Positions 1 through 7,643 of a DNA stretch of 7,643 nt are shown one piece after another; position 1 is the first letter of the stretch; each line of letters opens with the position of its first letter. Position numbers and translations under genes: made by a program. Source of the DNA: a virus; the IMG/VR virus record IMGVR_UViG_3300008222_000107, one strand, 5' to 3'. The notes under the pieces were generated by a model. The model ran no database searches, was not told the origin of the DNA, and worked only from the letters and a program-made list of their open reading frames with translations.

Positions 1-123
1 GGCTTCACGCATTAATTTTGGATAAAGAATAAAACCATCATCATCAAGGATTAATTCTCCAGTATCATCTGTAGAGCCTTCATCAGTTTCAGGAGTGAAT
101 TTTTTTCTTTCTGAAACTGAATA
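1..123. repeat. Terminal redundancy, left copy (identical to 7521-7643)
   Basis: ggcttcacgcattaattttggataaagaat...ttttttctttctgaaactgaata is read identically at both ends of the window. It lies inside an open reading frame, so it reflects circular closure or assembly overlap and is not an LTR or att repeat. Confidence 0.97.
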
Positions 124-501
124 ATTATAATATTTTTCAGGTAAATGATTTTTTATAGAATCTATACCTTCGCTGTCTAAGTCCTCAGGCTTGAAAACTT
201 TGGCATCAGAAGGAAAAACATCTTGTACTTCATCCATGATAATAAAAGCCTTTACAGGCATCCACCAAAACCATCTACGCCATAAAAACAAACCCTTTTC
301 GGTCTGACTAGATAAGCGCCAAATATCAGCAGAATCAGGGAAAACTTCATTTAGTTCAATTTCAATAGATTCTTTCGTTAACATGCCCTCAATATTAGTA
401 ACAACAACACGACCAGCACGAAGCGCTGGGAGCATTTCAAACCAAACTGCACTAGCAGATTTAAAAGAACCTGGTGCACCGTGAAAAATTTTCGCAGCCA
501 T
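1..501 (-). CDS. zot: Zot / gene-I (pI)-like assembly ATPase, N-terminal P-loop half. The gene continues across the circular junction into 7520-6717, for 434 aa in total.
   Basis: Hand translation of the minus strand from ATG 501-499 gives MAAKIFHGAPGSFKSASAVWFEMLPALRAGRVVVTNIEGMLTKESIEIELNEV...AFIIMDEVQDVFP...LYPKLMREA. There is no stop down to base 1. The frame joins the listed ORF 6717-7532, whose MREANMRHRKYNWDII follows directly. Walker A is GAPGSFKS (480-457) and the Walker-B-like motif is FIIMDE. The N-terminus closely resembles V. cholerae Zot as I recall it (HGAPGSYKTSGALW..LLPAIKSGRHIITNVRG). The SD is GAGGA, 10 nt upstream. The start overlaps the upstream stop as TAATG. Confidence 0.9.
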   Translation of the reverse strand, partial: MAAKIFHGAPGSFKSASAVWFEMLPALRAGRVVVTNIEGMLTKESIEIELNEVFPDSADIWRLSSQTEKGLFLWRRWFWWMPVKAFIIMDEVQDVFPSDAKVFKPEDLDSEGIDSIKNHLPEKYYNYSVSERKKFTPETDEGSTDDTGELILDDDGFILYPKLMREA

Positions 502-926
502 TAGAAAATAGTCCTCATAACAAAACGTGTCATATAAGCATTAAGCAATAAATTAAGACCATCAAACAAACGCATATCAACAAAAGCCTGTCTAACATCC
601 TGAGGTAATGCACTAATCTGTGCAGTTATTTGAGACATAATGTTTAAATCAATAATGATTTCTTTACCCACAATCCAAGAAAACTTTAAAGCTTCAAGAT
701 AAGCAAATAATTTTGCTTTTACATACCATTTAACAGCCCAAGACCAAAAGCGATGCCATAAAGTAGGAGTATCATCAAATAAAAACTTCCAAAACAAAGA
801 AATATTGTCAGCAAGCATTTGAGAAGTACCAGCCGCATCTTGATAAGTATCCGCATAAGCAATATACGGAAATAAATAAAACAAAATAAAAAATGAAAAG
901 CTTAAATAAAACCCTTTATTAAACAT
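501..926 (-). CDS. pVI-like hydrophobic minor virion/membrane protein (141 aa)
   Basis: It sits between the pIII-like and Zot-like genes, the gVI/ace position. The protein is very hydrophobic and aromatic-rich (MFNKGFYLSFSFFILFYLFPYIAYA..., WHRFWSWAVKWYVKAKLFAYLEALKFSWIV). TAATG overlaps at both ends (924-928 and 499-503) suggest translational coupling. Function is assigned by position only. Confidence 0.6.
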   Translation of the reverse strand: MFNKGFYLSFSFFILFYLFPYIAYADTYQDAAGTSQMLADNISLFWKFLFDDTPTLWHRFWSWAVKWYVKAKLFAYLEALKFSWIVGKEIIIDLNIMSQITAQISALPQDVRQAFVDMRLFDGLNLLLNAYMTRFVMRTIF

Positions 927-2302
927 TATCTTTTTCCCCCAAGTAACACGAACGCGGCAATTAAAGAACAGATAAGCATGACAGGAGCAGCAAGCAATTT
1001 AAAAAAGTACGAAAAACGACTTAATGACATATCAAAAGTCCCTTTAGTTAAAACAAGGTTTCTTGCTTCATAACCACCAGCCGCAGCGGTAATTGTAAAC
1101 ATTGCACTAGCTTCAGATCTAATCGTTGATATTTCCGCTTTAACATCAGCTTTTAATTGAACAATTTCAGCCTCTAAAGCAGCTGTTTGAGCATCTCCAA
1201 ACATTTCATCGAATTTTGTTCTATCAATAGGTTGTGTTGTTGTTGTATAAGTCATTTTTTCACCAAGTTCACCAATACCATCTTCTAAACCTGACATGTC
1301 AATATTAACTACAGTTGAATTAGTGTCACCGTCACCATCAGAGATAGGATCATCTTTTCCATCACCATCACTATCTAAATCATCCTCATTTTTTATACCA
1401 TCACCATCTATATCTGGATCATCATAATCTGGTAAACCATCACTATCAGTATCAGTATCGTAACAAGCAAAAACATCGTTCACATAACCGCAACCCTCTT
1501 GGCAATTAGTTCCATCAGAATCACAAACATCATCAGGATTAGCAGGACAAGTAAGAAGGTTGCCTGAGGTCGTACATTCACCATCAACAGGTAGTTCTCC
1601 AATTGAACCGTTATCATCTAAAGTCGGATATGTTTCAGAATAGCAATCACCTTCTAAATCCATTTGATAAACAGAGTTTCCACCACCAACATCAACGGCA
1701 TTATATTTACAAACTGAACCGTCAGACTGAGTAAAACAACCGACAGCATCGGTTACTTGAATATTTAAAACAGAATTACCAGAAGCTGAATTACATGAGT
1801 CATTTAAATTTAAATCAGCAGGTTTAGCACAACCAATAACTTTTTGCTCACCATCAACATCACCAAGAACAGGGTAAGTGTGCTCTGGATACTCTGGAAT
1901 ATTAGGACATATACGGGAATCACTCACCTCAACAAAGCTTGCATTAATATCAGTACTTATCGTTTTATCAGTATCATAAGTGCAAGCAAATTGTGGTCGT
2001 TTGTATGTTTCGCTATTGGCATTCCATTGTTGAAAAGTACAACTTTCAATAGCGTAAGAGCCTGACAAGTATGCAATAGCTGCTTCCTCAGCAGCACCAA
2101 TTTGAAAGCCTTCTGCAGAACATGTTGTTGTATTTATACTGTATTTTGAATAAGACCATTCATCACAAACTTCCATATCAGGAGGCTTAAGCTCCGCAAA
2201 ATCTGAGATATCTGCAGATGAAAAAAAAGGCACAAAAAAAGCGACTATAAAAGCCGCCTTTAATGTGAGTTTGCGGCAATAATTAACTGGTTCTAATTGC
2301 AC
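926..2302 (-). CDS. pIII-like receptor-binding / adsorption minor coat protein (about 458 aa from GTG 2302; the track ORF starts at TTG 2344)
   Basis: It is the largest structural ORF and lies directly after the major coat gene. The track start at 2344 is a TTG with no SD. GTG at 2302-2300 is preceded by GAGGG with 8-nt spacing. The GTG start gives the signal peptide M-QLEPVNYCRKLTLKAAFIVAFFVPFFSSA / DISDF. The N-terminal region has 16 Cys between track residues 60 and 294. An Asp-rich repeat linker follows (DTDTDSDGLPDYDDPDIDGDGIKNEDDLDSDGDGKDDPISDGDGD). The C-terminus has a hydrophobic anchor and basic tail (FFKLLAAPVMLICSLIAAFVLLGGKR), as in pIII C-domains. Confidence 0.75.
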   Translation of the reverse strand: MQLEPVNYCRKLTLKAAFIVAFFVPFFSSADISDFAELKPPDMEVCDEWSYSKYSINTTTCSAEGFQIGAAEEAAIAYLSGSYAIESCTFQQWNANSETYKRPQFACTYDTDKTISTDINASFVEVSDSRICPNIPEYPEHTYPVLGDVDGEQKVIGCAKPADLNLNDSCNSASGNSVLNIQVTDAVGCFTQSDGSVCKYNAVDVGGGNSVYQMDLEGDCYSETYPTLDDNGSIGELPVDGECTTSGNLLTCPANPDDVCDSDGTNCQEGCGYVNDVFACYDTDTDSDGLPDYDDPDIDGDGIKNEDDLDSDGDGKDDPISDGDGDTNSTVVNIDMSGLEDGIGELGEKMTYTTTTQPIDRTKFDEMFGDAQTAALEAEIVQLKADVKAEISTIRSEASAMFTITAAAGGYEARNLVLTKGTFDMSLSRFSYFFKLLAAPVMLICSLIAAFVLLGGKR

Positions 2303-2366
2303 TCGAAAAGCCCTCGACAAAACAATATGTAAAAATAGTCGCAAACATCAAAGAAGTAAGCACGAA

Positions 2367-2558
2367 TTAACGACCTAACAACTTGATAACAATGCCAACA
2401 CCAGTAACAACAGCAGCAATAGTTAAAACAACAACAACTGCAGCAGTAGTGTTAGTTGTACCATCAGTGCCAGCGGCAGTAATAGCGGTAGAGTGATCAA
2501 CAGCAAAAGCGCTAACCGATGCAAAACTGGCAGAGCCAAAAGCTAATAAACGTTTCAT
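2367..2558 (-). CDS. Major coat protein (gVIII-like), 63-aa precursor
   Basis: ATG at 2558-2556 is preceded by AAGGGGA with 5-nt spacing. The track's longer ORF begins at a GTG at 2600 that overlaps the upstream stop and lacks an SD. The signal peptide is MKRLLAFGSASFASVSAFA. The mature ~44-aa protein is VDHSTAITAAGTDGTTNTTAAVVVVLTIAAVVTGVGIVIKLLGR. It has an acidic/polar N-terminus, an Ala/Val/Gly-rich helix and a basic C-terminus (K, R), the classic inovirus coat layout. Confidence 0.85.
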   Translation of the reverse strand: MKRLLAFGSASFASVSAFAVDHSTAITAAGTDGTTNTTAAVVVVLTIAAVVTGVGIVIKLLGR

Positions 2559-2599
2559 AATATTCCCCTTAGGAACAAAGTTAAAAAAAAAGTAAAACA

Positions 2600-2989
2600 C
2601 TATGTTTTACCTAAAACGCGAAGCACACGCCCAATGGAGTGACCCGCAATAAATCCGATTAAACAAATCGCATTGAAATAAGCGAAATCTTCACCCGAAA
2701 ATTCAAATAAATCTGTCAAAGTAGCAATAACACCATCTTGATTAATTGCGTCATATTCAGATTTAGAAAGTAGAATCAAGCCAGAAGGGCAAGATTCGAC
2801 TGAAACACTGTCTATTCTCAAATTGCCATTTGTTTCTTCTGATAAACAATAAGAAGCATTAGCATTGAAAATAAAAAAGACCATCACCAAAAAAATAAAA
2901 ACTTTAAAAAATGGAAAAGTTGTTTTTCTAGGTTTAAAAGTAAAATAAACCTCATCAATGACTTTTTTATTTTGTTGGTGACTGGTCAT
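2600..2989 (-). CDS. Hypothetical membrane protein (129 aa) with an N-terminal signal/TM segment and a C-terminal TM plus basic tail; possible minor coat or assembly protein
   Basis: ATG at 2989 lies 5 nt after the stop of the upstream gene. The N-terminal hydrophobic segment FPFFKVFIFLVMVFFIFNANA is followed by a soluble ~60-aa domain. The C-terminus is FAYFNAICLIGFIAGHSIGRVLRVLGKT. It occupies the gVII/gIX position, between the gV-position gene and the coat gene. I recognise no sequence family. Confidence 0.5.
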   Translation of the reverse strand: MTSHQQNKKVIDEVYFTFKPRKTTFPFFKVFIFLVMVFFIFNANASYCLSEETNGNLRIDSVSVESCPSGLILLSKSEYDAINQDGVIATLTDLFEFSGEDFAYFNAICLIGFIAGHSIGRVLRVLGKT

Positions 2990-2994
2990 AAAAA

Positions 2995-3297
2995 CTAAGA
3001 TGCCTTAGGCAAATCAAAACCGACAATTTTCATTGTCATAATGCCTTTTTTTACTGCAGTTTCTACTTCACACAATATTGAAGATGGAACTACACCAGTA
3101 GAAGCAAGTTTTTTAGATAATGCGTTTTCATTATTTGTGCAGATTGTAACTTTAGCTTGTTGTTGACCAACATCGATGCGATCAGCTTCAATTGTATTAG
3201 CAATAGAGTTATCTAAAATAAAAGCATTGGCATATAGCATTCCATTATCTTCGATTTTTCCCGCTGATATGCGCAGAATTTCTAGTGGAATTTTCAT
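2995..3297 (-). CDS. Hypothetical 100-aa protein in the gV position; candidate ssDNA-binding protein
   Basis: It is the first gene downstream of the strong minus-strand promoter at 3354-3382. SD AAGG lies 10 nt upstream of ATG 3297. The protein is small and soluble with no TM segment, and it lies immediately upstream of the coat module. Function is inferred from size and position only. I see no recognisable similarity to Ff gVp. Confidence 0.55.
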   Translation of the reverse strand: MKIPLEILRISAGKIEDNGMLYANAFILDNSIANTIEADRIDVGQQQAKVTICTNNENALSKKLASTGVVPSSILCEVETAVKKGIMTMKIVGFDLPKAS

Positions 3298-3333
3298 ATA
3301 TATTTAACCTTAAATTATTATCAGTGAAACAAC

Positions 3334-3380
3334 GACACGTTGAAACTAAAATTAATATAGACACTCAGTTTCAATGTGTC
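3334..3380. promoter_or_regulatory. Candidate operator: 13-bp inverted repeat GACACGTTGAAAC (3334-3346) / GTTTCAATGTGTC (3368-3380), 12 of 13 complementary, with a third TGAAAC at 3325-3330
   Basis: Read directly from the sequence. The right arm overlaps the -35 element and spacer of the minus-strand promoter. The left arm lies just downstream of its predicted start site. Confidence 0.4.
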
Positions 3381-3382
3381 AA
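3354..3382 (-). promoter_or_regulatory. Sigma70-type promoter for the structural/assembly operon (gV-position gene through zot)
   Basis: The minus strand reads TTGACA (3382-3377), a 17-nt spacer CATTGAAACTGAGTGTC, then TATATT (3359-3354). The -35 is consensus, the spacing is optimal and the -10 matches 5 of 6. It lies about 55 nt upstream of ATG 3297. Confidence 0.6.
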
Positions 3383-3391
3383 TTTTTATTT

Positions 3392-3419
3392 TTGACAAAA
3401 AGACTATAATTGATATACA
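3392..3419 (+). promoter_or_regulatory. Candidate divergent promoter for the 63-aa regulator gene
   Basis: The plus strand reads TTGACA (3392-3397), a 16-nt spacer, then TATACA (3414-3419), preceded by TG at 3411-3412 (extended -10-like TGaTATACA). This -35 lies back to back with the minus-strand -35, 9 nt apart, forming TGTCAA-n9-TTGACA. The -10 is imperfect, so confidence is modest. Confidence 0.35.
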
Positions 3420-3452
3420 ACAAATATGTTACATACAAAAAAGCAGTAAAAT

Positions 3453-3644
3453 ATGTCAAAAACAAAAACGGTAAGAATGAAACATGAGGATGCTTTCATT
3501 GTAGAACAAGCAGCAAGAGAGCTTGCAGCTGAGTTACAACAGGAAGTTATAGTTAGTCAATTATTAAGGGAATTAATGAAAGATGTACCAAAAGCAAAAG
3601 AAAGACTTAAAAACAAACTTATTAAACTTAGCGAAAAAAAATAA
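3453..3644 (+). CDS. Small 63-aa putative transcriptional regulator, ribbon-helix-helix (CopG/Arc/MetJ)-like pattern
   Basis: It is the only plus-strand gene. It is divergent from the structural operon and convergent with rep. MSKTKTVRMKHEDAFIVEQAARELAAELQQEVIVSQLLRELMKDV fits a short beta strand (TVRM), helix, turn, helix, followed by a Lys-rich tail. Its own terminator follows. The SD is weak. The fold is assigned by pattern only. Confidence 0.55.
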   Translation: MSKTKTVRMKHEDAFIVEQAARELAAELQQEVIVSQLLRELMKDVPKAKERLKNKLIKLSEKK

Positions 3645-3660
3645 AATAAGCTTTAGAAGA

Positions 3661-3712
3661 TTAAAAAAAAGATTACAAAATTAATTTGTAAAGGGGTGAT
3701 TTAATCACCTCT
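3661..3712 (-). terminator. Candidate terminator for rep (the convergent, bidirectional partner)
   Basis: On the minus strand the 3712-3692 hairpin is followed by a second hairpin: TTACAAA (3691-3685), loop TTAAT, TTTGTAA (3679-3673). Then comes TC plus a T8 run (3670-3663). The second stem is AT-only, so its strength is uncertain. Confidence 0.4.
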
Positions 3713-3723
3713 TTTATTTTTAT
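3692..3723 (+). terminator. Rho-independent terminator for the regulator gene
   Basis: AGGGGTGA (3692-3699), loop TTTAA, TCACCTCT (3705-3712). This is an 8-bp stem with one G-U pair on the plus-strand transcript, followed by TTTATTTTTAT. The rep stop codon (3703-3701) sits in the loop. Confidence 0.6.
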
Positions 3724-5278
3724 AATCATAAATTGCCCTATCAAAAACATTCATATTAATACGAGTAAAATCACCAGTGATTAAATGATTTTTATGTTCA
3801 TTTTTAATTTTACTTTTATATGGATTTGAGAGAGATTTGTTTTCAGTGCTGATCCAGTTATCAGTATTAATTTGTAAATCTTCTGAAACTGTATTTCTAT
3901 TTGAAAAATTATCATAATATTCTTCAAAACTATCATATTCATTGTTAAATAATAATTGAGCGATAGCTTTAGAACCACCATTTTCGGCAAGCTGACAAAC
4001 AACAGAACGAAGTTTGTTTTTTAAAATAAATTCCCATTCTTCAGGGGTTATGTAACATAGAAAATCGGCTTTATCTTCCTCTTGAGATATTATATCTTCA
4101 TCAGAAGAATCTTTACCAAGTTCAAAAAATGCCCTTAAACCTTTTGACCATTTAATTAACGTAGTGCCAACAAAAGCACGAGCATAATGCAAAAATAAAA
4201 TTTTATTTTTTTGTCTTTCTTCTTTATCTTCTAATTCAATTGAATTGCTCAATAAATCCCAAGGAGATGAAGATTTTTTACGCCCTGTTTTTGTATTGCC
4301 TTTTGTCATTTCGTCTGCCATATCCCAAGTGACTTTTTTACCTGTTTTAGTTTCTAAAAATTCATCATCTGAGCCAAATTTAGTAATATATTCCCCTGCT
4401 TTTTCACCGTTTGAAATATCAAAACCATACTCATTAGGACAATTAAGACCAGAACGGACAACCATAGTTTTCCATCGATTAAATAACCATAAATAATCAA
4501 AATTATCCTGTTTGGTTGGTATTTTAATTTTACTAAAAATAATAATATGGAAATGAGGATGCCAACCATTAGAACCATGGCGAACTTCAAAAGATCTAAT
4601 ATTACCGACAACACCAAACCTATTTTTGAATTTGCGCATAGGAGCACCAGCCCAAAACTTAGCGTTGGAAAAAGAAATTTTTTCTTTTAATTCGTCCAGC
4701 ATATCTCCAGCATTATGAGGAGCTGTTAAGGTAATCATTGAAATTTTTAATTTTTGTGCTTTGGCAATGTTGAAAGCGACACGCATTTCATTCGATTTTC
4801 TTTCAGTAATTTTAGCTGAGCAAACAGGACAAGTACGAGAATTTGCACAAGTTAAAAGACCACTAAAAAAAGCTTTCCCATTGGTTTTAGATTTAACAAT
4901 GTCAACGGTTTGAGATTTTCGAAATTTTGTACAAGTGCAAGTTCTATGATGAACATCATAGCCTTTTGCATTAACGGGAACATTTGAACCATGAAAACCA
5001 TACAGGATATTAGCAGCAGCATCTTGTAATTTATAACGAGTTTCTCTAGCTAAATTTACAGCATCTTTTTGATTGATAGCCCCATGTATAAGGCTTTCCC
5101 CTGTTGAAAAATCAACATATTCATTTTTTTTTCTAGTGTATTTTTCAGGGGGGGTACATAACTCCGTAGCATTACCGAGAGCGCTACTCGCTTTTCCTCG
5201 TTGCTCAGGCTTCGCCCTCGTCAACGCTCGCACGCGCTTCAAAGGTTGAAAAGAGGATTTTTGTTGATTATACTTCAT
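3701..5278 (-). CDS. Rolling-circle replication initiator (HUH endonuclease), pC194/Rep_1-like motif set, 525 aa
   Basis: Motif 1 is ISMITLTAPHN (the FLTLT type). Motif 2 (HUH) is WHPHFHIIIF, with H-P-H-F-H at 4561-4547, checked by hand. Motif 3 is GEYITKFGS, with candidate catalytic Tyr297 at 4390-4388. An upstream Cys cluster, LLTCANSRTCPVCSAKITERK, resembles the C..RFCP.C motif of pC194-family Reps. A long C-terminal extension follows. Confidence 0.85.
   Translation of the reverse strand: MKYNQQKSSFQPLKRVRALTRAKPEQRGKASSALGNATELCTPPEKYTRKKNEYVDFSTGESLIHGAINQKDAVNLARETRYKLQDAAANILYGFHGSNVPVNAKGYDVHHRTCTCTKFRKSQTVDIVKSKTNGKAFFSGLLTCANSRTCPVCSAKITERKSNEMRVAFNIAKAQKLKISMITLTAPHNAGDMLDELKEKISFSNAKFWAGAPMRKFKNRFGVVGNIRSFEVRHGSNGWHPHFHIIIFSKIKIPTKQDNFDYLWLFNRWKTMVVRSGLNCPNEYGFDISNGEKAGEYITKFGSDDEFLETKTGKKVTWDMADEMTKGNTKTGRKKSSSPWDLLSNSIELEDKEERQKNKILFLHYARAFVGTTLIKWSKGLRAFFELGKDSSDEDIISQEEDKADFLCYITPEEWEFILKNKLRSVVCQLAENGGSKAIAQLLFNNEYDSFEEYYDNFSNRNTVSEDLQINTDNWISTENKSLSNPYKSKIKNEHKNHLITGDFTRINMNVFDRAIYDYKNKRGD
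5246..5274 (+). promoter_or_regulatory. Candidate plus-strand promoter inside the 5' end of rep, firing antisense across the rep leader
   Basis: TTGAAA (5246-5251), a 17-nt spacer AGAGGATTTTTGTTGAT, then TATACT (5269-5274). Both hexamers match 5 of 6 at optimal spacing. The predicted start near 5281 lies just beyond the rep ATG (5278-5276). Confidence 0.5.
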
Positions 5279-5280
5279 TT

Positions 5281-5366
5281 GTCTAGCTCGCAGTCGTTGT
5301 CGTGATGATTAAAGCAAAAAGACATAAGGGTTGAATGTTTTGGCGAACGTTCAACCCGTTTTTTTG
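5281..5366 (+). ncRNA. Candidate ~85-nt antisense RNA (countertranscript) complementary to the orf91-rep intergenic leader, including the rep ribosome-binding region
   Basis: It is bounded by the promoter at 5246-5274 and the intrinsic terminator at 5328-5365 on the same strand. No plus-strand ORF lies in the interval. The ends are predicted, not measured. Confidence 0.4.
5328..5366 (+). terminator. Textbook rho-independent terminator on the plus strand
   Basis: GGGTTGAATGTT (5328-5339), loop TTGGCG, AACGTTCAACCC (5346-5357). This is a 12-bp stem with one G-U pair on the plus-strand RNA, followed by G plus T7 (5359-5365). On the minus strand the same stem has an A-C mismatch and the T-run lies 7 nt away. 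It therefore reads best as a plus-strand terminator. Confidence 0.65.
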
Positions 5367-5410
5367 CTTAAAATATAATAATCTAAATATTCATACTAAA
5401 CCAGAAGTTA

Positions 5411-5686
5411 TCACTTAGCGGCACTTTCAAAAGTTAATTCAACAAATTCACCAGAACTTAAAGGCAAAGCGTTAAATAGAGAATTCATTGAAGAAAAGGA
5501 ACGTAAAGAATTTTTCTGAGTAACTAAATTATATACTGACAATTCAGAACGAACTGAAAGCTCAACAAAAAAAACATCTGAATCATGGTTGTAACAAACA
5601 ACTAATTTAGAATCATCACAATCAAAATATTTAGAAATAAACTCATTTAATTGCAGGGTTTTTCTTTCGATTTTAGAGTAAGACAT
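5411..5686 (-). CDS. Hypothetical 91-aa protein, first gene of the putative orf91-rep operon
   Basis: ATG at 5686 has SD AGGAA with 7-nt spacing, and a good promoter lies upstream. The protein is soluble with no TM segment. I recognise no family. Confidence 0.6.
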   Translation of the reverse strand: MSYSKIERKTLQLNEFISKYFDCDDSKLVVCYNHDSDVFFVELSVRSELSVYNLVTQKNSLRSFSSMNSLFNALPLSSGEFVELTFESAAK

Positions 5687-5717
5687 TTTTTAATTCCTTT
5701 TTTATTAAGTTGAATTA

Positions 5718-5745
5718 AATATACCATATTAAATTAATTTTGCAA
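5718..5745 (-). promoter_or_regulatory. Sigma70-type promoter for orf91 (and probably rep)
   Basis: The minus strand reads TTGCAA (5745-5740), a 16-nt spacer, then TATATT (5723-5718), preceded by TGG (extended -10-like). The -35 overlaps the left arm of the 5742-5781 palindrome. Confidence 0.55.
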
Positions 5746-5781
5746 GTTTAATTTAAAAGTTTTATTTTAAATTAAACTTGC
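5742..5781. repeat. Perfect 17-bp inverted repeat with 6-nt spacer (40-bp palindromic element)
   Basis: GCAAGTTTAATTTAAAA (5742-5758), gtttta, TTTTAAATTAAACTTGC (5765-5781). It begins 11 nt after the stop of the 250-aa gene and overlaps the orf91 promoter -35. No adjacent T-run is present on either strand. Confidence 0.9.
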
Positions 5782-5792
5782 TGATATAATTA

Positions 5793-6545
5793 TTACTTAG
5801 TCATATCCTTTAAAAAAGTCTCGCCTTGTTGAAGTTCGCCATTATTATCATAATAACTAAGTACCCATAAATCATCGTCTGCAGGGTTTCCACTATTGGA
5901 AAAAGTTGTTTGATATTCAACGATTGCACAACCAGTAAAACCACCACCAACGCAAGCTTCTATCGCACTTGTAGACCAATCATCAAATTCATCAATAACA
6001 TCAGGCAAAGCAGGGATAACAATAGGAACAGCAGGATCGTCACCATCGCAAGGATCGCAATCATCACTTCCACATTCTTCTGCATTTTCACAACCAAAAG
6101 AACTTATAGGGTAATCATTTACCAATCCAATTTGAAAAAAATTGGTGGCTTGCTCCCTCACTTCATCAGCATTTCCAGAAATTAAAGTCGCTTTGATCCT
6201 AAAGTCATTACGATTTTTAACAGGTTTCATAATATAAATCTCATGACCTGATTCAGTGCGCGATTTAATAACTTTCATTACTGATATTTTTGACTCGAAA
6301 ACTAGATAATCATTAGCCTCTTTGGCTTTTTCTTCTGCCGTTTTAGCTAGTAAATAACGAAGTTTATATCTACCGACTGCAGTTTCATAAGTGGCACGTA
6401 ATTCAGGGTCGTCAATAATCTTTTGTAATAACCCAGAAACTACATCATCTTTTGAAGTAGTTAGTTTTAATTTCCCTGCAAAAGCATTTGTAGTAAAAAC
6501 CAAAACCAATGTAATAAGTAAGACATGTACAATTTTCATTTTCAT
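5793..6545 (-). CDS. Secreted accessory protein of unknown function (250 aa) with a Cys/Asp-rich C-terminal half
   Basis: The signal peptide is MKMKIVHVLLITLVLVFTTNAFA / GKLKL, with an AFA-G cleavage site and no lipobox Cys. The second ATG at 6539 has better SD spacing (AGGAA + 6 nt) than the first at 6545. The N-terminal half is charged and helical-looking. Then come CENAEECGSDDCDPCDGDDPAVPIVIPALPDVIDEFDDW and ...ACVGGGFTGCAIV, giving 6 Cys. I recognise no family. It lies between the zot-like gene and the replication module. Confidence 0.75.
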   Translation of the reverse strand: MKMKIVHVLLITLVLVFTTNAFAGKLKLTTSKDDVVSGLLQKIIDDPELRATYETAVGRYKLRYLLAKTAEEKAKEANDYLVFESKISVMKVIKSRTESGHEIYIMKPVKNRNDFRIKATLISGNADEVREQATNFFQIGLVNDYPISSFGCENAEECGSDDCDPCDGDDPAVPIVIPALPDVIDEFDDWSTSAIEACVGGGFTGCAIVEYQTTFSNSGNPADDDLWVLSYYDNNGELQQGETFLKDMTK

Positions 6546-6641
6546 TTCCTTTTTAGTAAAAATATAAGTCCTTTTAGACTTACGTGTGTAAATTGGCTAG
6601 CAACAAAATTTTGTTAAATTGCGCCAAAATATAAATAGAAC

Positions 6642-6688
6642 ATTACCGGCCCAGGCACAAAACAAAAAACTGTGCTTGGGCTGGTAAT
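6642..6688 (-). terminator. Long hairpin after zot: candidate operon terminator and/or packaging-signal/origin hairpin
   Basis: ATTACCGGCCCAGGCACA (6642-6659), an 11-nt A-rich loop, TGTGCTTGGGCTGGTAAT (6671-6688). This is an 18-bp stem with two non-Watson-Crick positions, G-T on the plus strand and A-C on the minus strand. It starts 29 nt after the zot stop. The minus-strand trailer TGTTCTATTTATATTTT is T-rich but is not a clean T-run. Confidence 0.45.
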
Positions 6689-6716
6689 AACCTAACTTAA
6701 ATTTCTGTCACTATCT

Positions 6717-7643
6717 CTAAGTTGAATTAGAAACATCACTACCTTGTGGTCGTTGTTTTTCTATCTTTCTTGGTGGGCAATAAGCATATCTGAAGTTATC
6801 TTCTTTAAATATTTTTGCAGAACATTCATTAACAAAACGAACAACAAAACCCATTTGTTTTAGGTTATCACCACTTAAATAATACTTTTCAGTGCCTTTT
6901 ATAAGTGTAAAAAGATATTCCCTTTGACGGTTATTTTTGTTTTTAATATCAACATAGCCATTGAAATATATTTCATTGGCTCGATATGGCAAATCTACAG
7001 AAATAGGGCTTTCATTACTATTCTGAATAGCGTTAGTAATATTAGAAATATTAGGACTTTTAGTAGTGGCTTCGCTAGATAGTGAAATATTTTTACCAAC
7101 ACTTTCTTCAATCCTTTCAGCAGCTGTTGCTTTATCTTCTTTAATAAAGAGCCACCATGTCGCATAACTGAAACAAAGAAATAATAGGGCGATAGTAAAA
7201 ATAAGTGTAGGATCTTTAAACGCGTTAAGTGCTCCAGCTTTTGTTGTTTTTCCCGTGCTTGTACTTCTATAACATTTGTGTACTTCGACTGGCACTCTTC
7301 GCCATTTAACCTGTTCACCTTTTTTAGCGGTGACACCTGTTGATTTTGGGCTATGTTCATTTATTCGTGGTCTCCGCTTAAAGTAAGGTATAAATTCAAG
7401 AGATTCATTGTATTTATGGAAGTAAGCAAATTCACAAACAGAGCGAACTAGTTTATGAATTTCAGATATTTCAGGGGTACAGTAAATGATATCCCAATTG
7501 TATTTACGGTGACGCATATTGGCTTCACGCATTAATTTTGGATAAAGAATAAAACCATCATCATCAAGGATTAATTCTCCAGTATCATCTGTAGAGCCTT
7601 CATCAGTTTCAGGAGTGAATTTTTTTCTTTCTGAAACTGAATA
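6717..7643 (-). CDS. zot: Zot / gene-I (pI)-like assembly protein, C-terminal part. It covers residues 127-434 of the 434-aa protein, and its 5' continuation is 1-501 through the circular junction.
   Basis: The frame is open from the right edge of the window to the stop at 6717. The listed ORF (6717-7532) begins only at an internal Met. MRHRKYNWDIIYCTPEISEIHKLVRSVCEFAYFH matches the Zot core as I recall it (HRHHGWDICLTTPNIAKVHNMIREAAEIGYRH). A single TM segment (LIFTIALLFLCFSYATWWLFI) is followed by a ~140-aa C-terminal domain, the pI/Zot topology. Confidence 0.9.
   Translation of the reverse strand, partial: YSVSERKKFTPETDEGSTDDTGELILDDDGFILYPKLMREANMRHRKYNWDIIYCTPEISEIHKLVRSVCEFAYFHKYNESLEFIPYFKRRPRINEHSPKSTGVTAKKGEQVKWRRVPVEVHKCYRSTSTGKTTKAGALNAFKDPTLIFTIALLFLCFSYATWWLFIKEDKATAAERIEESVGKNISLSSEATTKSPNISNITNAIQNSNESPISVDLPYRANEIYFNGYVDIKNKNNRQREYLFTLIKGTEKYYLSGDNLKQMGFVVRFVNECSAKIFKEDNFRYAYCPPRKIEKQRPQGSDVSNST
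7521..7643. repeat. Terminal redundancy, right copy (identical to 1-123)
   Basis: Base-for-base identity with 1-123; 7521 corresponds to base 1. Confidence 0.97.

Follow-up and report, generated by a model that had tools for sequence, protein, structure and literature searches.

The viral DNA of 7,643 nucleotides held as IMG/VR record IMGVR_UViG_3300008222_000107 (the window, by which we mean this whole stretch) raises the question of whether it is the complete circular genome of a filamentous phage, or inovirus, and of how such a genome would be kept in its host. In our reading, to which we give a probability of about 0.85, the window holds one full copy of the circular genome of an uncultivated inovirus (order Tubulavirales) whose host probably belongs to the Colwelliaceae and which is most likely episomal. 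Below we consider the closure of the circle, the genes it carries, its replication module, its likely host and mode of persistence, and a candidate antisense RNA at the rep leader.

Closure of the circle

Circular closure of the assembly is observed directly. Self-comparison of the window ends showed that bases 1-123 and 7521-7643 are exactly identical, 123 bases being the longest exact prefix-suffix overlap, and a match of this length would arise by chance at about 4^-123. The second copy (7521-7643) is redundant, while the first (1-123) marks an arbitrary cut point in a circular assembly path, and the true unit is therefore positions 1-7520, a circle of 7,520 bp with 33% G+C. The first-pass annotation had interpreted the identical ends as circular closure falling inside an intact zot-like reading frame, and had named failure of that frame to close as grounds for rejection. 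The frame does close. On the circularised unit the zot open reading frame (ORF; 434 residues, minus strand) begins at 501, passes from base 1 to base 7520 and ends with its stop at 6717, the repeat spanning Zot codons about 127-167. The identical 434-residue Zot is already recorded in a public protein collection (P0001), in which a 7,647-bp contig (7,520 + 127) carries Zot, orf250 and orf100 proteins identical to those of the window.

De Bruijn assemblers report a cycle as a fixed overlap of k-mer length. Since the terminal overlaps of related circular contigs are exactly 127 bases (L004, L007, L010 and L011) or 123 bases (L012), the 123-base overlap is an assembler k-mer signature, which is technical and says nothing on the biology of the phage. 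As closed circles, the relatives L004, L007 and L010 measure 6.8-7.6 kb.

Support for the junction at the level of assembled contigs, rather than of reads, comes from a separate assembly. A 4,493-bp contig (L034; JGI 3300025738 Ga0209292_1022937) matches the window with 100% identity over 5773-7520 and, past the 7520/1 junction, over 1-2745, its zot being uninterrupted, in agreement with the annotated complete unit of 7,520 bp. From the same sample, on whose accession a literature search returned no paper, a 2,953-bp contig (L001) matches 2783-5735 at 100%, and neither contig has foreign sequence at its ends. An exact 40-mer spanning the junction had no match in a collection of metagenome contigs, which, as L034 contains this 40-mer, evidently lacks the source samples and is uninformative in either direction. 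That L001 contains the replication module and L034 the structural one, that the breaks between them (2746-2782 and 5736-5772) coincide with plausible borders of the modules, and that related phages co-occur in sample 3300025738 might be taken to mean that the window is an assembly chimera, in which modules of two co-occurring phages were falsely circularised. We regard a chimera as very improbable given that the two contigs together cover 7,446 of the 7,520 bases at 100% identity and that the window bridges both of the remaining 37-base stretches; its gene set is, moreover, complete and non-redundant, and L004, a circle from a separate assembly, combines the same modules and arranges them in the same way. 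The first break is in the N-terminus of orf129, which is not conserved, and the second in an AT palindrome (5742-5781), positions which hint that the co-occurring phages share one module and not the other.

The structural and assembly module

Like its closure, the gene content of the unit is directly observed. All long ORFs are on the minus strand, in the order orf91, rep, orf100, orf129, major coat, pIII-like, pVI/Ace-like, zot and orf250, and the sole plus-strand gene, orf63, lies opposed between rep and orf100. The coding strand is T-rich (35% T); in inoviruses the T-rich strand is usually the packaged one. The filamentous-phage module set proposed from the sequence was borne out, with Zot, Rep_1 and coat profiles all matching as predicted, and from such matches we infer function.

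The Zot/pI morphogenesis ATPase is split by the cut point, so that its N-terminal part (residues 1-167), with Walker A-like GAPGSFKS and Walker B-like IIMDE motifs, is found at 1-501 on the minus strand, and its C-terminal part (residues 168-434), which contains a transmembrane segment, at 6717-7520 on the same strand, the stop codon occupying 6717-6719. It matches Pfam PF05707 (E=1.7e-36; 126 bits against a cutoff of 20.3) and phrog_197 (3.4e-62). Upstream of it on the minus strand is the gene for a pVI/Ace-like minor coat protein of 141 residues (501-926), which matches Pfam DUF2523 (1.3e-08) and the 'Ace-like' phrog_306 (5e-22). The major coat protein (2367-2558, minus strand) is made as a 63-residue precursor that has a signal peptide and is acidic at its N-terminus, hydrophobic in its core and basic at its C-terminus; it matches phrog_1859 (2e-11) and phrog_1646 ('major coat protein'). 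Between these two genes, a 458-residue protein called by the JGI (Joint Genome Institute) annotation (926-2302, minus strand) has the position, size and topology of a pIII-like adsorption protein, with a signal peptide, an N-terminal part rich in Cys, a linker of Asp-rich repeats and, at the C-terminus, a membrane anchor. Searches of Pfam, PHROG and further family collections gave no family match for it; its C-terminal ~120 residues are 48-56% identical to the proteins in the pIII position of relatives.

Within the pIII-like gene, a repeat with a period of 39 nt (1354-1453) codes for Asp-rich repeats of the DxDxDG type, whereas the Ff phages have Gly-rich linkers at this place. To judge by their sequence these repeats, which have no Pfam match, look like calcium-binding repeats. 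The remaining gene of the module, orf129 (2600-2989, minus strand), encodes a membrane protein to which no role is assigned; it matches phrog_969 (2e-11), is conserved in the structural module, and is 64-67% identical over ~98 residues to its counterparts in L004 and in the integrated relative L035.

The 7,520-bp unit contains no secretin gene. Many active inoviruses that lack one, such as CTX-phi and Pf, use a secretin of the host. The module set is complete for a secretin-less inovirus, with no module duplicated: it includes the pI/Zot ATPase, a small major coat protein and pVI in a circular genome within the range of about 5-15 kb, together with a replication initiator that scores above the Rep_1 cutoff and, as the ssDNA-binding (single-stranded DNA-binding) component, an orf100 protein whose model has an OB-fold (oligonucleotide/oligosaccharide-binding fold) with weak fold scores.

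The replication module

Rep (3701-5278, minus strand) is a rolling-circle initiator of 525 residues and of the Rep_1/HUH type, matching Pfam Rep_1 (PF01446) with 37.3 bits against a cutoff of 33.2 and phrog_11698 at 1.4e-66. In an alignment of the window protein with ten relatives the motifs HPHFH (240-244) and E296-Y297-x2-K300 and the cysteines C144, C150 and C153 are all invariant, and these are again direct observations. A search of the Rep profile against PDB sequences gave no match. The protein also has a long, poorly conserved C-terminal extension (residues ~450-525; window 3701-3925), common to the closest relatives only and ending in a short conserved FDRA motif in the window, L004 and L007.

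The next gene on the coding strand after rep, beyond the opposed orf63, is orf100 (2995-3297, minus strand), and it occupies this place in all relatives. Its AlphaFold2 model, built from a 69-sequence alignment, has an OB-fold topology and a mean confidence score (pLDDT) of 94. The top folds in the PDB were nearly all single-stranded DNA-binding proteins (SSBs), PriB, PrgE and Rim1 (best E=7e-3, TM 0.4-0.54), and matches in the BFVD viral library include SSBs and an 'RstB-like protein'. Since these OB-fold matches coincide with a position and conservation shared by all Rep relatives, it is likely, on the strength of the model, that orf100 is a ssDNA-binding protein and the functional equivalent of gene V protein or RstB. 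The opposed gene, orf63 (3453-3644, plus strand), encodes a small basic protein that is a candidate transcriptional regulator; 8 relatives carry a homologue, 46-69% identical to it, at the corresponding position and on the corresponding strand, and its position makes it the likely regulator of the main promoter described below. Comparisons of orf63 and orf100 with Pfam and PDB sequences, both singly and as family alignments, gave noise only. Upstream of rep, orf91 (5411-5686, minus strand; an ORF also called by JGI) has no assigned function. It has a homologue in one relative only (L010, 39%), and no family match was found for it in Pfam, PHROG or further family searches.

The Reps of small cryptic rolling-circle plasmids are 30-34% identical to the window Rep, which makes it equally close to them and to phage Reps. 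This closeness, the apparent antisense control of rep, which resembles plasmid control, and the missing secretin gene would all be compatible with a rolling-circle plasmid or a defective phage-derived element that replicates without making virions. We consider such an element exceedingly improbable, as its coat and assembly ORFs should not then all be intact and full-length, with their signal peptides and anchors, and relatives would not be expected to retain the same full gene set; nor does the missing secretin tell against virion production when CTX-phi and Pf manage with that of the host. An inovirus with a Rep_1-type initiator remains the reading that we prefer.

Host and lifestyle

The named proteins most similar to the window Zot, at 53-63% identity, come from Colwellia metagenome-assembled genomes (MAGs), Thalassomonas sp. 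RHCl1 and Thalassotalea sp. ND16A, which a taxonomy check placed in the Colwelliaceae without exception, and the next relatives, at about 41-46%, are from Pseudoalteromonas. The G+C content of the host-flanked relative L035 (35%) compares with 33% for the phage. From these sequence relationships we infer that the host is probably a member of the Colwelliaceae. A literature search found no characterised filamentous phage of Colwellia.

Prophages of the Colwelliaceae (GCA_047518385.1, RHCl1 GCA_947387555.1, L035 and L084) have the orf129 homologue, coat, pIII, pVI/DUF2523 and Zot genes as in the window. The identities of L035 to the window are 68% for Zot, 73% for pVI and 81% for the major coat protein at the same position, while the Zot proteins of the Colwellia MAG, Thalassomonas and L084 prophages are 61-63% identical. 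All four of the integrated relatives L035, L083, L084 and L085 have the structural module in common but carry Rep_trans with RstB or DUF1293 in place of Rep_1 and orf100, and each adjoins a tyrosine recombinase. The window, in contrast to these chromosomally integrated prophages, has Rep_1 and orf100 and no recombinase. All of the Colwelliaceae prophages have a variable slot downstream of zot.

In L083 and L084, two Colwellia-type chromosomes, the prophage and its variable cargo are located between a radical-SAM gene and a gene for a 294-residue tyrosine recombinase by efp (L083 12445-13329, L084 15283-16167). Colwellia psychrerythraea has been reported to be without a conventional dif/Xer system (PMC2731167), and phages of the L083/L084 type may therefore use this recombinase and its site for integration. 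A search for att direct repeats around the integrated L035, L083 and L084 gave nothing convincing, and for this reason no attP was projected onto the window.

Since phages with a Zot 53-68% identical to that of the window occur integrated in chromosomes, it has to be asked whether the assembled cycle is instead a collapsed tandem array of integrated prophages, of the kind formed by CTX-phi, from which the assembler dropped low-coverage host junctions. Such an array and a free circle cannot be told apart from an assembly cycle, and multi-copy arrangements do occur in the group. The 14,310-bp contig L003 (= L086), which has a 48-base terminal overlap, joins two different inovirus genomes head to tail: zot is present twice, as is the rep-leader element, whose copies are separated by 7,029 nt. 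The contig could represent a co-integrate, a tandem arrangement or two genomes merged during assembly. As the first-pass annotation had stated, the window itself is free of host flanks: host genes are absent, Pfam searches found no integrase, a tRNA scan found no tRNA, and the best site in a scan for dif/XerCD attP (using the E. coli and the V. cholerae dif1/dif2 sites) had at least 6 arm mismatches of 22. An att-type repeat was not found either. The contigs carrying proteins identical to those of the window are all 7,647 bp or shorter, and the combination of Rep_1 and orf100 was never seen on a contig of chromosomal length, the orf100 family being found on contigs of at most 14.3 kb in 72 of 72 clusters. 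Among 185,579 species-representative genomes no Rep exceeded 34% identity, and the integrated relatives have a different replication module. These observations make a tandem array unlikely. Since Rep_1 and orf100 occur only on phage-sized contigs and integrated relatives use a different module, we favour the view that phages of the Rep_1 type are episomal and non-integrating, and the earlier proposal that this phage is episomal rather than integrated is thereby favoured, although not proven.

Several points weigh against our reading as a whole. Closure is drawn from assembled contigs, and assembly of a tandem prophage array would yield a cycle of this kind as well; the missing dif site is also uninformative, given that Colwellia is reported to have no conventional dif/Xer system. 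The host call uses evidence from the structural module only, and the part of pIII that binds the receptor shows no conservation with the Colwellia prophages. The label pIII itself is owed solely to position and topology, and the fold matches of orf100 score weakly (best PDB E=7e-3). Finally, the pC194-type nick motif CTTGATA, which marks the double-strand origin in the Rep_1 family, has 2 matches in the window, where 1.56 are expected by chance, and both are on the non-coding strand inside genes.

Non-coding elements and a candidate antisense RNA

The conserved non-coding elements of the unit are seen directly in the alignments with relatives, while what they do is proposed more cautiously. 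The best promoter in the window according to a promoter scan (3354-3397, minus strand; TTGACA-17-TATATT, 11/12) would drive the operon from orf100 to zot. This sigma-70-like main promoter spans 3382-3354 on the minus strand, faces orf100 and the structural genes, and has its -35 hexamer in a perfect 21-bp palindrome, TGTCAA-N9-TTGACA (3377-3397), which its sequence and location suggest as a candidate operator. In all relatives examined the element ATTGACAC is present at the main-promoter position and is followed by lineage-specific short repeats. In the window, the region downstream of the main promoter (3298-3452) contains inverted GTTTCA/TGAAAC motifs, whereas relatives have different short repeats there; the motifs may be operator or iteron-type binding sites.

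A second promoter was found on the plus strand opposite the start of rep. Its sequence is TTGAAA-17-TATACT (5246-5274), its -10 hexamer abuts the complement of the rep start codon, and it would direct the synthesis of an RNA of ~85 nt antisense to the rep leader, up to a hairpin (5328-5357) and a run of seven T on the plus strand that the terminator scan identified as an intrinsic terminator. The layout of a countertranscript RNA, with a promoter opposite rep and an intrinsic terminator beyond it, is thus present at the level of the sequence, and we regard 5246-5366 (plus strand) as a candidate countertranscript RNA gene. The register of the antisense promoter is matched in 9 relatives from 7 further lineages with divergent Rep N-termini (among them L002, L003, L004, L010, L007, L005, L008 and L009), and each of these has a hairpin and a T-run 75-90 nt beyond the promoter. 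A register match within a 4-nt window has a chance of ~0.007 per lineage, a value which, given the shared ancestry of the lineages, should be taken as a measure of conservation rather than as a probability proper. The predicted antisense RNA folds at -31.7 kcal/mol (z=-3.8). Furthermore, the block 5309-5382 retains 88-92% identity in relatives for which that of Rep is only ~60%, and within this close set there are compensatory changes at three stem pairs of the hairpin 5328-5357. Across distant lineages the antisense RNA region could not be aligned by MAFFT and RNAalifold gave no pairs, and an Rfam scan of the window found nothing near any gathering score.

Countertranscript control of rep is exemplified by pUB110 and pC194. 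In rolling-circle plasmids, rep is classically controlled by an antisense RNA (PMC5703833, PMC5717011, PMC5737340). We put the chance that the transcript predicted at the rep leader is a real regulatory RNA at slightly below even; the alternatives for the conserved block are a plus-strand origin or a leader attenuator.

Three further hairpins were found. One, located where rep and orf63 converge (3690-3714; terminator scan), gives a z-score of -4.05 for its fold as single-stranded DNA, all such z-scores being relative to shuffled controls, and is read as a putative bidirectional terminator. The second, an inverted repeat just downstream of orf250 (5742-5781), is a perfect AT-only hairpin of 17 bp with a 6-nt loop (z=-5.64) and a candidate replication-origin or module-boundary element. 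The third is an imperfect, GC-rich hairpin directly after zot (6642-6688, minus strand; z=-3.72 for the fold of 6600-6716) and is a candidate terminator and/or packaging signal. Neither of the last two shows sequence conservation among relatives.

The orf250 cargo

The variable slot downstream of zot is occupied by orf250 (5793-6545, minus strand), which encodes a protein of 250 residues to which no function is assigned. The protein has a signal peptide, as expected if it is secreted, and the C-terminal half is Cys- and Asp-rich. A search of 5.8 billion proteins returned only orf250 itself, and an exhaustive search of 1.84 billion representatives returned one true homologue, P0122 (260 residues), which is 29% identical along its entire length (pairwise E=4e-32) and is carried by contigs of less than 1 kb that offer no gene context. 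A repeat protein, P0123, was a weak match (E=7.7e-4). Pfam, NCBIfam, PHROG and PADLOC gave no match, and the single-sequence structure model was unusable (pLDDT 40). The gene was absent from all related loci fetched, the content of the slot being different in each relative. It is best described as phage cargo of a near-orphan family.

A proposed life cycle

With established inovirus biology as a guide, the phage may be expected to multiply as follows. The Rep_1/HUH protein would nick the plus strand at its origin and drive rolling-circle replication of a double-stranded replicative form, the progeny single strands being coated by the OB-fold protein encoded by orf100. The major coat, pIII-like and pVI-like proteins, perhaps with that of orf129, would insert into the inner membrane, where the Zot/pI ATPase would assemble virions and extrude them through a secretin, presumably that of the host since the phage encodes none. 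Expression would proceed from the strong promoter with its -35 inside the palindromic operator, beside the divergent orf63, and would possibly also be controlled by the short RNA antisense to the rep leader. In plasmid pMV158 the protein CopG and the antisense RNA II act together in copy control. We tentatively suggest, with somewhat less than even confidence, that the plasmid-type Rep_1 is here joined to plasmid-style antisense copy control, possibly acting with orf63, so that the phage would persist as a copy-controlled episome of the Colwelliaceae, and that the secreted cargo in the slot downstream of zot could act on the host envelope or on other cells.

The genome adds a complete reference for a marine inovirus lineage, probably of the Colwelliaceae, of which no member has been cultured or described. 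The main points of interest are the candidate antisense RNA, which if true would tie the persistence of an inovirus to the copy-control logic of plasmids, and the exchange of the replication module relative to the integrated Colwelliaceae prophages. The latter is a clean swap, in which the same structural module is found with integrating replication of the RstA/RstB type in chromosomes or with plasmid-type Rep_1 in free circles. Current understanding is unchanged, since genomes of this kind are known in their thousands and the exchange of modules has been documented before (PMC6813254).

Comparison with known systems

A nucleotide search against 50,697 phage records gave no match. The first-pass annotation had called the phage uncharacterised, which is consistent with this result and with the best protein identities to described phages, 31.7% for Zot and 35% for Rep. 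The closest relative with both modules is an uncultivated 7,617-bp circle, L004 (IMGVR_UViG_3300049783_001587), which has the same module order and is identical to the window at 53% for Rep, 62% for Zot, 69% for the major coat and 64% for orf129; the closest Rep in IMG/VR is 60% identical. The phage is undescribed, but its class is well catalogued. Roux et al. (2019; PMC6813254) reported 5,964 distinct inovirus genomes with many ORFans, and found that replication and integration genes are often exchanged, including replication genes with plasmids. The window resembles these inoviruses (PMC6813254) in being a circle of 5-15 kb with the pI/Zot marker, a small coat protein and many ORFans; it differs in that they include no nucleotide-level relative of it, and orf250 is absent from the catalogued contigs that were compared.

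In its replication module the phage is comparable to phage blackswan219-6 and Pseudomonas phage PMBT54, which have the best described Rep relatives (35% and 29%, respectively), and to Propionibacterium phage B5 and plasmids of the pC194/pUB110 type. All share the E-Y-x2-K motif with the window. Identity of the window Rep to those of the Rep_1-type phages and plasmids is only 25-35%, the window has no CTTGATA nick site in the expected context, and the extension at residues about 450-525 is specific to the clade of the window, unlike in other Rep_1 initiators.

In its structural module the phage resembles CTX-phi, VCY-phi, vB_Vipa36 and the V. cyclitrophicus phages, which likewise have the order coat-pIII-Ace-Zot and no secretin, and the Zot proteins of Vibrio inoviruses, its best described relatives, are about 30-32% identical to that of the window over their full length. 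Unlike CTX-phi, the window has no RstA, RstB or RstR and no dif-like attP, and as it gave no match to Rep_trans or CTX_RstB it does not fall with the CTX-phi-like genus Affertcholeramvirus. The accessory slot downstream of zot, which holds ctxAB in CTX-phi, holds orf250 in the window, and orf250, in contrast to the cargo of CTX-phi, has no similarity to any toxin family.

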